Of a stretch of 64,000 nt of DNA, positions 1,560 through 47,859 are shown piece by piece (positions within the stretch are counted from its first letter, which is position 1; every line of letters begins with the position of its first letter). The notes under the pieces were generated by a model, which had not been told where the DNA came from, did no database searches, and was given only the letters and a program-made list of their open reading frames with translations. This DNA comes from Escherichia coli (lineage in GTDB: Bacteria > Pseudomonadota > Gammaproteobacteria > Enterobacterales > Enterobacteriaceae). The position numbers and the translations under genes were made by a program. The stretch lies in the NCBI RefSeq assembly GCF_051903065.1, contig NZ_CP178439.1; one strand, 5' to 3'.

Positions 1560-4500
1560 GTGAAACTTAGAAAAACAATCACCTCAGCGATTATTGCATC
1601 AATGGTTGCCAATACTATGAGTTGGGCTTTTTATGTCACACTCATAAACATGGTAATGACACCACGTGTTTACGCTGCTGACGCTATATTTGACCAGCTC
1701 GAAAATAATTTTAACCTTGCAAATCCTAACGCAAATCGCAATGCAACCACCAGTGCTCAGGACATTGTGGAGAAATACAAGAACGCGGATTCAGGCGAGA
1801 ATGTCAGTGGGAAGATCACCGAGAAATACGTGGGTAAAGCCGAATCCGCTAATCTTAATCTCGGGAAGTATGGGGCAGGGAACTCTAATGAAAGTGTCAT
1901 GAAAAATGCCGCATCCGATGGAAAGTCTATTGGTAGCGCCGTACAACTGCCGAGTATGTCTGGAGGGACAATCAATTCAAACTACACCAAGGAAGGGGCA
2001 AAGCTGCTCTCTCGTGATGCTAATGGCAACATTGGTATAAGCAGTAATCCCAATACTACTCCTGGAACCAAAACAAATACGGGAGAGATTTTCAGCTCAG
2101 AGCAAAAGCACAGCGATATAAAGTTCAACGCCGCAGATCGTTATGGGGATGAGGATGGCTTTGTTAACGATATAAAGAATCGGAAAAGCCAGTTATTTGA
2201 TGCTCAAAGTTATGATGGCGTTGCCTACCGCACCCTCGTAAATGCTAACAAGGACAACCCGGCATCGTCTGTAAAGCCTAACGATCCCATGTTTACTGCG
2301 GGGAGAAATGAGATAACCAATGCTGTTGCTGGTACTGGAAACTGGCTTCAGAACTGTAATGTTGAGACCTCCAAAAAAACAGTAACCACACACTATCCTG
2401 ATTACAAAGAGTTCTACTGTAACTCGCCTAAGCAAGATAACTTCAGCAGCTGCACGATAACTCGTGACTTCTCTGTTCCTGTATACATTTCAGGCGGAAA
2501 CGGAGACATGTCGATGTGCGGCGATAATTGTGTGCGTATATGGTTTGGTCGCCGTGATGACAACTACTGGAGTGACGGGGTATTTAATAACGAACTGACA
2601 TTAAAATTCCATCCGGATGCAAAATTGGCCTCAGCAAAGATTGTTAACGCGGAGTGGGATGACCACATGCGGGTAACACTTGATGGCACGCAGATTTTTG
2701 CTCACATAGATGGTGCATATCGAGAAAGTGACTATCCGGCTCCAAAGGGATCTTGGGAGTTAAAAAAATCGTGGAAACTCGACAAAGTATACGATGTAAC
2801 TGAAAAGGTCAGAAAATCAGTTTATGAAGAACCTGATCGTGAAGTGACAATGGCATCCAGAGTCTGGGTTGGTGGGGGAGGTGAAGGGTACTTTGAGGTT
2901 GAGCTGACGTTTGAAAATATGAAGCTCGAAGATAAGCACGTCCAGGAACCAGCTGGTTGTTACGATGCTGTACAAACACCAAATACATTCTGCCGTTTCG
3001 ATCGGTTTAAAGATATGGATGTTGGCACGAAGCGGCTTCCGGAAAGCGTGCTTTCTATGGCAAAGCCGCTGTATGAAGGCGATAAAGGCTTTCTTACCTG
3101 GAAGACTAACCTTGAAGGCTATTTTTGTGATCCATTGGCTAAAGACAAGATTTGCTCTTATGACGCTAGTGGGAAAATTATGAAAGACGCTAATGGAAAG
3201 GACCTCTGTTACAACTACGAAGAAATTAAGAGTATGCCTGATGCATGTAGTTCTTATAAAAATGATGCAGCATGTGTACTCGATAAACAAACATGTGCAG
3301 AGGGTTGGTTCGATGAGGGCACTAACAGCTGCTACATGTATGAACAGAAATACACCTGTGACAGAGGTAAGGATGTAGTTCGTGAGGTTGAATCTTCTAC
3401 AAATGCCTGTGTTGGCATGATCCCATGTTCTGGAGGAACATGCGAAACTGGGCCAAAGGAAGAGAACAACGATTTTGGAAAAGTTGCGGCTTATTCAAAC
3501 ATGGTTCAGTACATGCAGGGCGAAGCCAAATGCGAAGACCCTAACGATGCCAATTCCTGTTCTGTCTTTGAAGGAAAACCTGAATGGTGTGGTCGTTCAG
3601 TAGGCTTTGTAAATGGCCTGGCAAAGACGGACTGCTGCGAAGCACCGCAGGGAACCGCAGGAGCACTTGAAGGTATCATGCTTGCCGGATCTATGATCAG
3701 AAACACTAACTGGACCAGAGTTAATGCTCAGCTAATAAAATGGACCGGCGGTGATACAGGTACATGGGCTTCTATGTCCAATGCGGTCGGTGAGTGGACT
3801 GCATCAGCTGGTAAAACAGTAGGGCAAATGTGGAACAATGTCACGAGCTCCTTAACGAGCGTATATGAAAACGTCGCTGGTAATCTAAGCAGGGCAGTTG
3901 GGTCTTCCGCAACTTCTGGAGGGGCAGGAGGTGCTGGCCAGTTGGCACAGGAAACAATGTCCAGCTTCGGTATAGGTCAGCTTAAGCAGATGGCAATGAA
4001 GAAAGCCTACGAATTGCTACCAGATACAGTTCGAGACTTTGTCTTTAAGAACGTTGCTACTACCGGAGGAGAGGTTGTCTTCTCGGCTGCGGTTCAAAAC
4101 TTTATGCTTGCATTAAACGTGATCGGTTGGATTTATACAGCCTATCAGGTCACTAAAATGCTTTTAGAAATGTTGGTAGCATGCGACCAGAAAGAGATGG
4201 AAGCTTCTATTCATAAGAATCAAAAATCCTGTTTTACATTAGATACGGAACGATGCGTCAAATATCTGAATGTTGGTTTCACAAAGAAATGCGTTAAAAA
4301 AGCAACAGACATGTGCTGTTATAATTCCATGTTGTCACGCGTTATTATGCAACAAGCTTATCCGCAATTAGGAATAGACCCTGTCGCCTCTAATTGCGTG
4401 GGGCTATCAATAAAGCAAATACAGCAACTGGATTTCGATAAAATTGATCTGACGGAGTGGATTAATGATGCAGTTCAGGTAGGAGAAGTTCCTGATCAAT

Positions 4501-5828: not shown

Positions 5829-7613
5829 ATGGGTAAGCCAACAGAAGAGCAAAGACCTGTTATCGAGAATGCTAGCGCAAACAATATGGTGATAGCAGCG
5901 CCTGGATCAGGCAAATCATTCACCATGATAGAAGCGGTTATATCGATTCTCAAAAAGTATCCATATGCAAGAATCGGGATGGTGACCTTTACTCGCGCTG
6001 CAACAAACGCACTTGCAGCAAAGTTACAAAAGCGATTGAGCAAGAAGGATCTTGACCGGGTGCTGGTGGATACTTTTCACGGACTCGTTAAGAAGCAACT
6101 GGACATGATTCGCTGGCCGGGAAAGATGTTGATAGGGCCAGCACAGAGATCTGTCATTCACCGGGCTTTGAAAGAATCCGGTGTAACGATGAAGTTTGCT
6201 GAAGCTGAATTCGTTATTGATGCTATCGGCAGAGAAATGGATACGGATGTGATTTCAGTTCGGCATAACAGACAACAGATCCATTTATTTAATACCTATC
6301 AGGCGTTATGCCAGAAAGACCATGTGGCGGACCTCAATGCTCTTTCAAAATTTGTTGTCGGTCAAATGCATTCGGGAAAAATGCGCACGTTAGATTTGAC
6401 ACATTTGATAGTAGACGAAGTTCAGGATACTGACTCTATACAATTCTCATGGATAGCATTGCATACAAGAGCTGGAGTCTATACGAGTATAGTTGGAGAC
6501 GATGATCAGGCCATCTACTCCTTCAGATCCTCAGGAGGAGTCAAAATATTTCAACAGTTTGAAAAACACTTCAGACCTAACATATTTTACTTAAACACAT
6601 GCTTTAGGTGTGAACCTGAAATTTTAGAGGTGGCCGGAGCACTGATAGGAAAGAATGTTTACCGTTATGCCAAAGAGTTACGCTCGGCAAAAAAGGGAGG
6701 AGGAAAGGTCACTTTTCGTTCATATGTAGATATGGAGGAACAGATACAGGGTATTTTAAGCCTTATAAATCAGGATCCACATGGATGGGCAATTCTAAGC
6801 CGCAATAATGCTCACTTGGATGAGCTAGAAAGTTTGATCGAACAGCCAGTAATTCGTTACGGAGGTAAATCATTCTGGGATGAAAAAGAAACAAGCGATG
6901 TGTTAAGCCTTATGGCCTTTTTCCGACAATCAAATGATCCTCGCTTAATGAAGAGAGTATTGGCATTGTTTGGAGAACAGGAATCAGTTTTGGATGAAGT
7001 GGCATTGAGTATGAGAGGAAGAAAAGTTACTTTTGGCGACCTTGCCATCCCGGAGGACAGTTCTCTCGAAACAAAAACATTACATTCAAACTTCGTGCGC
7101 TTTACCCAGGAAAGTACTGATAAAGTTGAGATAGCAAAACGTTTCGCCAACCTTACGAAATGGATGGAATCGTCGTCAATCAAGATGAGGAGTAATAAAG
7201 GTACAGCAACCTTAACAAAAATTGCTTTAGACACTTGTAAACAGTGGGCAGAAAAGACTGGTTGGATGAATATGATCAATCGTGCTGCTGCAATGTCATT
7301 AGGCCCTAGGAAGAAGGACGAGGAATACAGCCCAGAGAAAGTAGTCCTATCAACCTTGCATGGTTCAAAGGGTCTTGAGTGGAATAAAGTAATAATAATG
7401 AGTTGTAATGCGGATCAGATACCAAGTAAAAGATCAGTTGGGGAGGAGGCAATAGAAGAAGAAAGACGTTTGCTTTATGTTGGATTTACGCGTGCAGAAA
7501 AGCAACTTTTTGTAATGTGGTATGGTGACCCTTCTTTCTTTTTAAGAGAATGCAGTGAAGAAAAGATAAAAGAAGCAGCTAATATTCGAATTTCTCCAGT
7601 TTATACAGAATAA
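5829..7613 (+). CDS. UvrD/Rep-family (SF1) DNA helicase
   Basis: Walker A AAPGSGKS near the N-terminus, DEVQD (DExx box), C-terminal TLHGSKGLEW and YVGFTRAEKQLFV helicase motifs; 594 aa. Confidence 0.85.
   Translation: MGKPTEEQRPVIENASANNMVIAAPGSGKSFTMIEAVISILKKYPYARIGMVTFTRAATNALAAKLQKRLSKKDLDRVLVDTFHGLVKKQLDMIRWPGKMLIGPAQRSVIHRALKESGVTMKFAEAEFVIDAIGREMDTDVISVRHNRQQIHLFNTYQALCQKDHVADLNALSKFVVGQMHSGKMRTLDLTHLIVDEVQDTDSIQFSWIALHTRAGVYTSIVGDDDQAIYSFRSSGGVKIFQQFEKHFRPNIFYLNTCFRCEPEILEVAGALIGKNVYRYAKELRSAKKGGGKVTFRSYVDMEEQIQGILSLINQDPHGWAILSRNNAHLDELESLIEQPVIRYGGKSFWDEKETSDVLSLMAFFRQSNDPRLMKRVLALFGEQESVLDEVALSMRGRKVTFGDLAIPEDSSLETKTLHSNFVRFTQESTDKVEIAKRFANLTKWMESSSIKMRSNKGTATLTKIALDTCKQWAEKTGWMNMINRAAAMSLGPRKKDEEYSPEKVVLSTLHGSKGLEWNKVIIMSCNADQIPSKRSVGEEAIEEERRLLYVGFTRAEKQLFVMWYGDPSFFLRECSEEKIKEAANIRISPVYTE
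7023..7033. repeat. AAAGTWACTTT palindromic motif copy 2
   Basis: AAAGTTACTTT inside the helicase gene (codons K-V-T-F). Confidence 0.6.
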
Positions 7614-39774: not shown

Positions 39775-40200
39775 ATGTAATTCCTTCTTAAGAGATCGGA
39801 AGAGGAGAGTAGTTTCAGGAAGAGGCCAGAGTTTGTAGATTTGATAAAACGGCACGACATCTGTCGGGTGGAGATTAAATACTCAGAAGCGGCATTAAAG
39901 AAATAAGTTAACCACCATTGAATTACCGACATGTGAATGGCCTCTTATCAGAGAAAAAAATTCAGACCGTACTGGAATATAAATTTCTGAAAAAAACTCC
40001 GGCAAAAATAAACTTTCTTATGTATGAAAATCATCATACATCACAGATCTGCATGAATGGAGTGTAAATCGCCCAAAGATTGATGTGTAGCACAAGAGGA
40101 TGTCAAGACACCAGGTTTTGTAGGCAGAAAGGCGCTGCTGACATTGCGGGAGGAGAATAGATCAAAACTCCGTCACGCAGATACAGAGGTGAAATATGAC

Positions 40201-40222
40201 AAAACCGGGGTTTTCACCCCGG
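40201..40222 (-). terminator. Hairpin plus T-tract between terW and terY (attenuator/terminator on the minus strand)
   Basis: Minus-strand reading gives CCGGGG-tgaaaa-CCCCGG followed by TTTT. Confidence 0.45.
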
Positions 40223-40236
40223 TCTGAGATTTAGCG

Positions 40237-40704
40237 TCAGGACTTTTTAGCGCTGTATTCTTTTATCAGTTCATCAACGGAGTGCAGAGCCAGCTTCTCT
40301 ACCGCTTCACTTCGGGTCGAGCCACTCAGCGCAGCCAGACGGTCAATTTTTCTTAAAATCCGCATGCGTAGCGATAATGACACGGCTGTTTTTTTATCCT
40401 TATCGAGTACGACCTTCCCTGTGGACTCACCGGTTTTCAGTTCAGCATTCTGTGCGAGCGCTTCATTCATCCGGCGAAGGGTCTTTTTATCCAGCTGGCC
40501 CGGATTAACGAGATGGTAGGAATGACCTGCCTTGCTGTATTTGATCTCCGCAGAATATGACTCGCGTAGCTCTTTGAGTGCCCGGGTTAATGTCGGCTCT
40601 GAGCATTCCAGACTGGTTATAATGTCGGCAGCGGAAACGGGCTTGCCGGTGCCCAGTAAGTTGGCAAGCTTAAAAATCCGGGCCTGTCTGGTATTTAATT
40701 GCAT
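40237..40704 (-). CDS. terW: TerW, winged-helix DNA-binding protein
   Basis: 155-aa ORF with N-terminal helix-turn-helix-like segment (AADIITSLECSEPTLTRALKELR); position upstream of terY/terX. Confidence 0.65.
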   Translation of the reverse strand: MQLNTRQARIFKLANLLGTGKPVSAADIITSLECSEPTLTRALKELRESYSAEIKYSKAGHSYHLVNPGQLDKKTLRRMNEALAQNAELKTGESTGKVVLDKDKKTAVSLSLRMRILRKIDRLAALSGSTRSEAVEKLALHSVDELIKEYSAKKS

Positions 40705-45895: not shown

Positions 45896-46954
45896 TTAAT
45901 TCAGATGGTTAGAGAGTGATTCCGGGTAAACGATGACATCTGTGATGGATCTCACTGCAACCGGAGAAAAGGTATTTCTGGCGCTCTGGATCACCGCATC
46001 TTCAGACATCAGACCGAGCTTAAAGGCAGCAAACAACCCGGGAAGGTTCACCCCGCTGTGAAGGGTATAACCCACCCCGCCTGACGGACGCATGTTGGTT
46101 TCAAGCAGCACCGGGTTGCCATTCACATCGTTTCGCGTCTGAACATTCACCAGCCCGTCGGCCTTCATAACCCGGGCGCAGTCACAAGCCAGTTCCCAGG
46201 CGCTTCCTTCGTTTACCAGATACTGGATAGCCCCTTCCTTACGGCGTCCCACGGCTGCGAGTATTTCGCCCTTATCCGCGAGGATATCGACGGAAAATTC
46301 CGGGCCTGGCAGGTACGGCATCAAAACAAGGGGTTTAAACGACTCAGAAGCCGATGCTGCTGCAATATACTGTTGCGGACTGACCAGACGATGTTCGGGA
46401 TGATTAAAGACGGCCATGGGCGAAGCACTGTCATCAAAGCGCCAGAATCCCATGCCATAGATACCCGTCACCGGCTTCACGCATACCGGGCTGTCCGAGA
46501 ACGGCGGGGCCGCGAGGTGCGTCTTTAATTCTGCCAGCGTATTCACCCGCCAGGACGGTACGACCGGGAGCCCGTTTTGCTCCATAAACTGAGCAAAAGT
46601 AACTTTTTCGTCAGCCAGAGTTAACCAGTCGACGCCTGTTGCACCGGTAGTAAGGGTGGCTCCGGTCGATTCAATGGCTGAACGGTGTTCTTCAAACCAC
46701 TGGCTGTTACGGCCAGTATGAATATGGTGGATGCCGTAGGTCTGAATGGTTTCCTGAATAAACTGAAGACGTTTTTGAGGATCTTCAGGTTCAGTCAAAG
46801 AATAATCGGCAACGGAAAGAATTTCATGTCTTTCGTTACGGTGGGAGGCAAATACGGTAATAGCAAAATTATTTTTTTGTGCAAATGATTTTACCCCCTG
46901 AATAATATCTCGCTGGGAGGACAAACCTTCCATAAACCAAATTTTCTTGTTCAT
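45896..46954 (-). CDS. ATP-grasp enzyme, Ter-linked biosynthesis module
   Basis: 352-aa ORF, first gene of the minus-strand biosynthesis operon divergent from terZ; Gly-rich VCVKPVTGIYGMGF segment; call based mainly on position. Confidence 0.5.
   Translation of the reverse strand: MNKKIWFMEGLSSQRDIIQGVKSFAQKNNFAITVFASHRNERHEILSVADYSLTEPEDPQKRLQFIQETIQTYGIHHIHTGRNSQWFEEHRSAIESTGATLTTGATGVDWLTLADEKVTFAQFMEQNGLPVVPSWRVNTLAELKTHLAAPPFSDSPVCVKPVTGIYGMGFWRFDDSASPMAVFNHPEHRLVSPQQYIAAASASESFKPLVLMPYLPGPEFSVDILADKGEILAAVGRRKEGAIQYLVNEGSAWELACDCARVMKADGLVNVQTRNDVNGNPVLLETNMRPSGGVGYTLHSGVNLPGLFAAFKLGLMSEDAVIQSARNTFSPVAVRSITDVIVYPESLSNHLN
46596..46606. repeat. AAAGTWACTTT palindromic motif copy 9
   Basis: AAAGTAACTTT inside the minus-strand ATP-grasp gene (E-K-V-T-F on the coding strand). 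Confidence 0.6.
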
Positions 46955-46985
46955 TTTTTTTAATTATCCGGAACGCCATGCAAAT

Positions 46986-47036
46986 TTATGATTGAGAAGT
47001 GAGTCTATGAGTGTCTACGCTACATGTCAATCATAA
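46986..47036. promoter_or_regulatory. Inverted repeats in the divergent ter promoter region
   Basis: TTATGATTGA (46986-46995) and TCAATCATAA (47027-47036), 31-bp spacer, overlapping a second dyad ATCATAaTATGAT; lies between the biosynthesis operon and terZ. Confidence 0.4.
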
Positions 47037-47277
47037 TATGATTAATAACTTCAGTGGTTATGGAGTGCGTCAGTGTTTTTTTTAGTGCCTTATAACGTAT
47101 TGATATTTAAATTAAAAATAGAAAAATGAACACCATGAAAAGGATTTATTTTTGTGTTTTTGAAGAAAACTACCAAAATTTCCCTTGTCAGAGAACTTCA
47201 TCATGATATGATTTTCTTCGTCAGTTACTAAATATACCTTTGATTGTCTCGGTCATTACCATTTTAAGGAATAAAAC

Positions 47278-47859
47278 ATGGTTTCATTAGTTAAGAACCA
47301 GACGGTATCACTCAGCAAAGAATCATCTGCATTAAGCCAGCTTCATTTCGGTCTCGGTTGGGATCCGGTTAAGAAAAAAGGTCTTCTTGGAGGATTGTTT
47401 GGAGGCAACGACTCAATCGATCTCGATGCTGGCTGCGTATTAATGGACAGCACCGGTAAAACAATTGACACCATCTGGTTCCGCAAACTGGAATCCACCT
47501 GCGGCGCTGTTGTGCACAGTGGCGATAACCTGACCGGTGAGGGTGACGGTGACGATGAGGTGATTAAGGTCAACCTCTCCCGACTGCCTGCAAACGTTGA
47601 ATACCTGGCGTTTACGGTAAACAGCTTCCGTGGTCAGTCGTTCAATGACGTCGAAAACGCGTTCTGCCGCGTTGTCGATCAAACCGGCAAAGAGCTGGCT
47701 CGCTACAAGCTGACTGAGCAGGGCTCACATACCGGGATCGTTATTTCTTCGCTGCGCCGTAATAACGGCAACTGGGACTTTACCGCCCTTGGCCATGCCT
47801 GTCGCGGCCGCACAATTGACGATATGCACTCCGATATCGTTTCAGCGGTTATTCGCTAA
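47278..47859 (+). CDS. terZ: Tellurite resistance protein TerZ (TerD family)
   Basis: [13 protein letters not shown] signature; 193 aa; first gene of the terZABCDEF order. Confidence 0.85.
   Translation: MVSLVKNQTVSLSKESSALSQLHFGLGWDPVKKKGLLGGLFGGNDSIDLDAGCVLMDSTGKTIDTIWFRKLESTCGAVVHSGDNLTGEGDGDDEVIKVNLSRLPANVEYLAFTVNSFRGQSFNDVENAFCRVVDQTGKELARYKLTEQGSHTGIVISSLRRNNGNWDFTALGHACRGRTIDDMHSDIVSAVIR

Follow-up and report, generated by a model that had tools for sequence, protein, structure and literature searches.

The divergent promoter region of the ter (tellurite-resistance) locus harbours two copies, O1 and O2, of one short palindromic element. We consider it likely, with a probability of about 0.78, that O1 and O2 form an operator pair for TerW, and that TerW bound to them occludes the −10 region of the terZ promoter and the −35 region of the leftward promoter, leading to repression and negative autoregulation. 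The two copies are present and unique in the window (the whole stretch of 64,000 nt that was analysed), they are conserved, they overlap the predicted promoters, they co-occur with terW, and TerW has predicted DNA-binding folds. TerW is probably a repressor and autoregulator; we infer this direction of regulation, and likewise the autoregulation, both transcription starts and the nature of the inducing signal.

The ter locus and its divergent spacer

Many IncHI2 plasmids of Salmonella and E. coli contain the segment 46800-47400 with 100% identity, and this region of the window is the ter locus of an IncHI2 plasmid. An AT-rich divergent region of about 320 bp had been described in the initial annotation. 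This is correct: the spacer 46955-47277 comprises 323 bp with 30% G+C and corresponds exactly to the gene-to-gene distance between an ATP-grasp gene on one side and terZ on the other. The leftward block consists of seven genes with gaps of at most 17 nt (ATP-grasp, PRTase, hypothetical, StiP, HpcH, DUF4236, terW), and the rightward block terZABCDE(F) begins at 47278. The relevant features are:

45896-46954, minus strand: ATP-grasp gene (Ter-associated), first gene of the leftward operon (Pfam ATPgrasp_Ter, E 1.7e-37; annotation of an identical plasmid)
47278-47859, plus strand: terZ, first gene of terZABCDE(F) (Pfam TerD, E 2.4e-46; annotation)
40237-40704, minus strand: terW, candidate regulator gene, last gene of the leftward operon (named by the annotation of an identical plasmid)
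40202-40225, minus strand: intrinsic-terminator-like hairpin directly 3′ of terW (10 pairs, 6 of them G-C, followed by a T-rich tail; terminator scan)

The hairpin at 40202-40225 marks the end of the leftward operon. The promoter scan revealed no sigma-70-like promoter just upstream of terW, and a search of 46700-47500 against Rfam gave no RNA family.

Two copies of one palindrome in the spacer

All three strings reported in the initial annotation were found exactly at the positions given there (TTATGATTGA at 46986-46995, TCAATCATAA at 47027-47036 and ATCATAaTATGAT at 47030-47042). The palindrome ATCATAaTATGAT is the core of O1. A repeat search recovered the inverted repeat and also showed that the 14-mer ATCATAATATGATT (47030-47043) recurs as ATCATGATATGATT at 47200-47213, which is part of the second copy, O2, absent from the initial annotation. 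A single shared operator had been suggested; instead, each promoter has its own separate copy, and the two lie about 170 bp from each other:

47028-47044, no strand assigned: O1, putative operator, CAATCATAATATGATTA; core palindrome 47030-47042; published 25-mer 47024-47048
47198-47214, no strand assigned: O2, putative operator, TCATCATGATATGATTT; core 47200-47212; published 25-mer 47194-47218

A position weight matrix (PWM) derived from 35 sites gave the 17-bp consensus CAATCATnnTATGATTG, in which none of the 35 sites deviates at the TCAT and ATGA positions. The exact pattern ATCATNATATGAT occurs at only two places in the 64-kb window, and these are the two operators. O1 had the best PWM score of the window (24.2 bits) and O2 the second best (21.2 bits). 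The next score was 8.8 bits and lies within the range of shuffled sequences, for which the best value over 30 shuffles of the window was at most 19.8 bits. A degenerate pattern with 2-3 mismatches occurred at chance level across the window.

Statistics within the spacer are weak. Palindromes with arms of at least 7 nt were present in about 10% of dinucleotide shuffles of the spacer, and a 14-mer direct repeat with at most one mismatch in 2.7%. Due to these weak values, neither of the two dyads that had been reported can be judged from the sequence of the window alone.

A weak third TerW site before terY1 was proposed for Pectobacterium (PMC7843439), but the PWM gave no hit in 39775-40236 of our window. 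The spacer before terY1 was not alignable with its Klebsiella counterpart. The only sigma-70-like promoter predicted before terY1 is TTGCCG-18-TATATT (40005 to 39976). Just upstream of it we noticed an 8-bp inverted repeat, ATGTATGA-N6-TCATACAT (40020-40041, minus strand), which is not a TerW-type site by PWM.

Predicted divergent promoters and their overlap with O1 and O2

The promoter scan predicted one promoter in each direction, both with 10 of 12 matches to the consensus hexamers:

47185-47212, plus strand: predicted terZ promoter, −35 TTGTCA at 47185-47190, 16-nt spacer, extended −10 TGaTATGAT at 47204-47212
47002-47030, minus strand: predicted leftward promoter (ATP-grasp to terW), −35 TTGACA at 47030 to 47025, 17-nt spacer, −10 TAGACT at 47007 to 47002

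The terZ promoter also has the TG of an extended −10. Transcription would start near 47219 on the plus strand and near 46995 on the minus strand. O2 covers the extended −10 of the predicted terZ promoter. O1 abuts and overlaps the upstream edge of the leftward −35, and its centre (47036) is at about −41 from the predicted start. Across genera the two hexamer pairs keep their register relative to the operators, and their spacing lies within the 16-18 nt of a sigma-70 promoter: TGTCAA is invariant, GAGTCTA shows an identity of 0.84 at a fixed distance across loci, and a cTTGnnn hexamer is located at a fixed distance from O2 in the two-site loci.

Two further elements were observed in the spacer. 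An A-tract, CCAAAATTTCC, at 47172-47184, which directly precedes the terZ −35, shows partial conservation across genera and resembles a proximal UP-element subsite. Between O1 and O2, a perfect match to the IHF core consensus, WATCAANNNNTTR, is found at 47093-47105 on the minus strand. Such a match was equalled in 26 of 500 shuffles and is conserved only in the close clade.

Conservation of the sites across ter loci

A scan with one genome per species yielded 80 terZ loci, and identities relative to the window were calculated from a MAFFT alignment of 12 sequences. Mean identity was 0.90 for O1 and 0.96 for O2, versus 0.50 for the whole spacer and 0.38 for the sequence between the sites; the core palindrome 47030-47042 reached 0.94. 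In Enterobacterales loci with a divergent ATP-grasp gene the core is located at about −248 and −79 from the terZ ATG, with the distal copy lacking in locus L003. Both sites are present in Enterobacter, Escherichia sp., Yersinia nurmii, Rouxiella, Rahnella, Morganella, Proteus penneri, Superficieibacter and Serratia, and a Klebsiella virulence-type plasmid has them at the usual positions. In loci that keep the core, identity decreases to about 67% for TerZ and to about 46% for the ATP-grasp protein. Altogether, near-invariant copies of both sites were found in about 18 divergent ter loci of Enterobacterales and on one plasmid each of Aeromonas and Acinetobacter. The initial annotation had viewed the palindrome as an operator-like element of the divergent promoter region. 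The palindrome was conserved in all terW-type loci that were examined; homologous ter promoters thus do possess it, which supports this view.

Three copies are found in Xenorhabdus, an Enterobacteriaceae MAG, Pantoea, Mixta and the Acinetobacter plasmid (L009, L011, L012, L017, L018, L089). The extra copy precedes the terZ-proximal one by 32-35 bp, or about three helical turns, on the side away from terZ and lies over the −35 region; in L009 the copies are at −225, −101 and −69 from terZ. This third copy may provide tighter or cooperative repression.

Other loci deviate in different ways. L003 (Enterobacter sp. Bisph1) has kept the divergent ATP-grasp gene and the terZ-proximal operator, while O1 is missing. 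This is a naturally occurring variant, and its leftward operon may have escaped TerW control. In L014 (Candidatus Hartigia pinicola) the operators at −240 and −80 from terZ are degenerate (ATCATGTTATAAT and ATCATGATAGCAT), which is consistent with decay of regulation in an endosymbiont. By eye, the ter intergenic region of L089 (Acinetobacter venetianus plasmid, positions 6640-6946) appears to match that of L018 (Mixta sp., positions 2660-3000) as the reverse complement. This match, seen by eye only, would suggest either that the whole ter cluster was recently acquired by horizontal transfer or that an assembly was mis-assigned.

Association of the sites with TerW

Sites and terW are found together in the window and in L082, L088 and L089 (Klebsiella, Aeromonas and Acinetobacter plasmids); the 3-kb flanks of L002-L081 end before terW. 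TerW of the Aeromonas caviae plasmid is 45% identical, and the motif scores there are 17.2 and 10.8 bits. For the Acinetobacter venetianus plasmid these values are 41% identity and 25.3, 21.4 and 18.8 bits. Pseudomonas citronellolis pRBL16 (L090) has no TerW homologue by tblastn (E at least 0.21), and its top PWM score was 0.1 bits. The other non-Enterobacterales terZ loci did not exceed 5 bits, and named TerW homologues are almost all from Enterobacterales. In L090 (5072-16537) the genes for ATP-grasp, PRTase, StiP, HpcH and HAD are co-directional and located directly upstream of terZABCDE, with neither terW nor a divergent promoter. Based on this layout, the TerW/operator module seems to be an add-on of the enterobacterial-type ter locus.

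The palindrome has been described before. According to Kravchenko et al. [quoted passage not shown] They gave the R478 sites as putative TerW operators that coincide with the TerW-protected region of Valkovicova et al. 2011. The stretch 47024-47048 is the reverse complement of 'terZ1_R478_site_1' in their TerW.fa (Supplementary file 4, PMC7843439) in 25 of 25 bases, and 47194-47218 agrees with 'terZ2_R478' of the same file in 24 of 25 bases. These are thus the same two sequences, with the same placement between terZABCDE and the divergent operon (Suppl. Fig. 4). That study was based on R478 and three Pectobacterium strains and defined a 25-bp palindrome, while in our comparison strong conservation is confined to 17 bp; symmetry of the outer arms of the 25-mer is seen in some lineages only, e.g., Pectobacterium and Aeromonas. 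According to citing papers, Valkovicova et al. 2011 (Biologia 66:565-573) showed for E. coli KL53/pTE53 specific binding of TerW to the promoter region of terZABCDE, with protection of a stretch that coincides with the palindrome. TerW, proposed as candidate regulator by the initial annotation, stands as the best candidate; the literature assigns the palindrome to this protein, and the sites track terW. TerW is very likely the regulator acting at O1 and O2.

TerW comprises 155 aa. In Pfam, HTH_11, HVO_A0261_N and RHH_1 all remained below threshold, and a HicB-type ribbon-helix-helix (RHH) was also indicated at the C-terminus. By sequence TerW is not a member of the TetR or MarR family, and a sequence search of the PDB gave no solved relative. 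The AlphaFold2 model has a mean pLDDT of 88, with values above 90 over residues 10-80. It predicts a canonical winged helix at residues 4-66 that is followed by a long helix and, beyond a flexible linker, by two helices at the C-terminus. The predicted winged helix is composed of H4-16, H24-31, H35-49, E52-56 and E61-66, i.e., a three-helix bundle with a beta-hairpin wing. The top 50 Foldseek hits were MarR/ArsR/SarA-type regulators (E from 2e-3, TM about 0.4-0.54). As judged from the model, the N-terminal domain is a winged helix-turn-helix. Orthologues with as little as 40% identity to TerW retain the recognition helix CSEPTLTRxLxELR as well as the KxxVSLSL strand and the RSE turn.

At the C-terminus, RHH_1 reached 16.1 bits against a cutoff of 20.5, and 12 of 25 homologues match this family (best E 3.6e-5). 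The Klebsiella orthologue is named 'ribbon-helix-helix protein, CopG family' by PGAP, and hhalign aligned residues 104-135 of TerW with residues 2-33 of CopG (E 0.0025, with an approximate CopG query). The monomer model shows two helices and no strand in this part. TerW thus appears to combine a winged helix with a ribbon-helix-helix-like unit, i.e., two potential DNA-reading modules within 155 residues, and both modules are preserved in homologues as distant as 40% identity.

Proposed action of TerW at O1 and O2

We propose that TerW binds to two copies of the 17-bp palindromic operator. Since O2 lies over the terZ −10, bound TerW would block RNA polymerase at the extended −10, and terZABCDE would be held at a low level. 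The products of terZA are toxic upon over-expression. As cited in PMC4633105, Whelan 1997 reported that terW protects E. coli from terZA lethality. The leftward promoter drives the operon that extends from the ATP-grasp and PRTase genes to terW; TerW on O1 at the leftward −35 would therefore most likely limit its own operon, resulting in negative autoregulation. In a phoP mutant of Pectobacterium the level of terW was increased 6.9-fold, while terZABCDE was at 0.16x and the first leftward gene at 0.45x (PMC7843439). The authors favoured direct control by PhoP; the expression pattern also fits repression by TerW.

Alternatively, TerW could repress terZ at O2 and activate the leftward operon from O1 in a class II-type manner, which would result in positive autoregulation. 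The position of the O1 centre (47036), about 41 bp upstream of the predicted leftward start, is the classical position of class II activators. In addition, the leftward −10 (TAGACT) is imperfect, and one secondary source paraphrases Valkovicova et al. 2011 as TerW 'inducing overexpression' of ter genes. However, the leftward −35 is a perfect and invariant TTGACA, which is usually lacking in activator-dependent promoters, and the distance to O1 is counted from a start that we infer. Moreover, in Pectobacterium more terW was accompanied by less transcript of the first leftward gene (PMC7843439). We therefore regard activation from O1 as unlikely.

The distance between O1 and O2 was 156-171 bp (15 or 16 helical turns, approximately) in 17 of 17 loci measured and falls into two narrow groups (156-159 and 166-171 bp) that are about one helical turn apart (R = 0.65 at a period of 10.5 bp). 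This suggests a face-of-helix constraint or looping, yet the loci are not independent in their phylogeny. Because they represent two related groups with indels of 1-5 bp inside each, we do not take the helical phasing as evidence. It is a rather doubtful idea that two-headed TerW oligomers bridge O1 and O2, that the resulting loop silences terZA together with the divergent pathway for a nucleoside-like metabolite, and that a ligand, possibly the pathway product, opens the loop. The IHF-like site midway between the operators (47093-47105) could help to bend such a loop.

The 10-bp inverted repeat

The initial annotation had proposed as operator a 10-bp inverted repeat, the arms of which are TTATGATTGA and TCAATCATAA. 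Our data do not support this.

46986-46995, no strand assigned: left arm, TTATGATTGA, resembling an isolated operator half-site (TATGATTG) near the predicted leftward start

The right arm (47027-47036) consists of the −35 hexamer and the left half of O1 and shows an identity of 0.955. The left arm has an identity of 0.31 in the 12-sequence alignment, is below the spacer mean of 0.50, and ranks 271st of 313 ten-base windows. It is limited to a clade of about 95% identity (IncHI2, chromosomal islands of E. coli O157:H7 and O104:H4, Leclercia IncHI2A) and is missing from the next relative, Enterobacter asburiae, and from every locus outside the clade. Thus, the left arm is not conserved in homologous ter promoters. 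A perfect 10-bp inverted repeat with a gap of at most 60 nt was found in 5.3% of dinucleotide shuffles of the spacer. The repeat is a coincidence, in which the −35 hexamer and one half of O1 face a non-conserved sequence that looks like a half-site. An RNA hairpin formed by the two arms was also considered and ruled out, since the right arm is located upstream of the predicted leftward start.

There are some features in favour of a function, either of the repeat itself as shared operator or of the left arm as an auxiliary TerW half-site that contributes to repression of the leftward promoter in the IncHI2/O157 clade. Both arms are perfect, TATGATTG in the left arm equals the right half-site of the consensus, and the left arm spans about +1 to +10 of the predicted leftward transcript, at a distance from the left O1 half of about 41 bp, or four helical turns. 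In addition, all members of the clade that were examined have retained the left arm. This retention carries no information, however, because the entire left segment is identical within the clade. Considering also that the left arm does not score as a full site by PWM, that it is absent outside the clade, nearest locus included, with a conservation below the spacer mean, and that the repeat arises in 5.3% of shuffles, we regard such a function as quite improbable. At most, the left arm is a clade-specific auxiliary half-site.

Global regulators and core promoter elements

That a host global regulator (OxyR, PhoP, Fur, Zur, CRP or FNR) and not TerW reads the palindrome appears very unlikely. The centre of the palindrome, TCATAATATGA, bears a loose resemblance to the centre of a Zur box, but a Zur box has other bases where the motif has its invariant C and G, and the motif is restricted to terW-bearing loci. 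For all six regulators the best matches were reached by 392-500 of 500 shuffles. The OxyR pattern ATAGnTnnnAnCTAT-N7-ATAGnTnnnAnCTAT (four ATAG-type elements) matched at best in 12 of 20 positions in the region, a value equalled by 392 of 500 shuffles, and the PhoP direct repeat TGTTTA-N5-TGTTTA in 8 of 12 positions, equalled by 500 of 500. OxyR control of ter has been reported for Proteus mirabilis (Toptchieva et al. 2003) and Yersinia pestis (Ni et al. 2014), and PhoP boxes have been reported for Pectobacterium (PMC7843439). In the Klebsiella ter promoter, however, no OxyR motif was detected by Vornhagen et al. The P. mirabilis and Y. pestis systems concern the same operon and promoter region, and Proteus penneri and Yersinia nurmii carry both palindromes. 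The conserved element described here is a different, much shorter dyad, and no OxyR-like motif above chance was detected.

It is even less probable that the conserved blocks are core promoter elements only, with no dedicated regulator: O1 does include part of the TTGACA hexamer, O2 contains TATGAT, and AT-rich palindromes are common by chance, but the same 17-mer is found at the −35 edge in one promoter and at the −10 in the other, with a third copy in some loci, conservation is symmetric beyond the hexamers with the dyad symmetry kept, the presence of the sites tracks terW, and protection by TerW is reported in the literature as cited above.

Relation to known systems and significance

An operator pair for TerW would resemble other divergent regions with paired dyads. 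The tetR-tetA region (two tetO dyads) and marO of marRAB (two MarR sites) both combine repression with autoregulation through such pairs. By analogy, one dyad would act on the −10 of the target and the other on the regulator's own promoter. Unlike in these systems, terW is not adjacent to the region but lies about 6.3 kb from it as the last of the seven genes in the divergent operon, and O1 and O2 are about 170 bp apart and not adjacent.

Both sites are already known: TerW binding to the ter promoter was described in 2011, as related by citing papers, and the R478 sites were listed in 2021. As the element has been published for this plasmid family, our finding is correct but ordinary. What our analysis adds is a phylogenetic footprint of broad scope, the overlap of each site with a promoter, the variants with three sites and the negative result for the 10-bp repeat. 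Of 5426 complete E. coli genomes, 954 (about 18%) carry the ter locus, which is also found on thousands of IncHI2 and Klebsiella virulence plasmids. The exact positions at which the regulator would sit, over the −10 of terZ and at the −35 of the biosynthetic operon, allow clean designs of reporter fusions and operator mutants to find the inducing signal.
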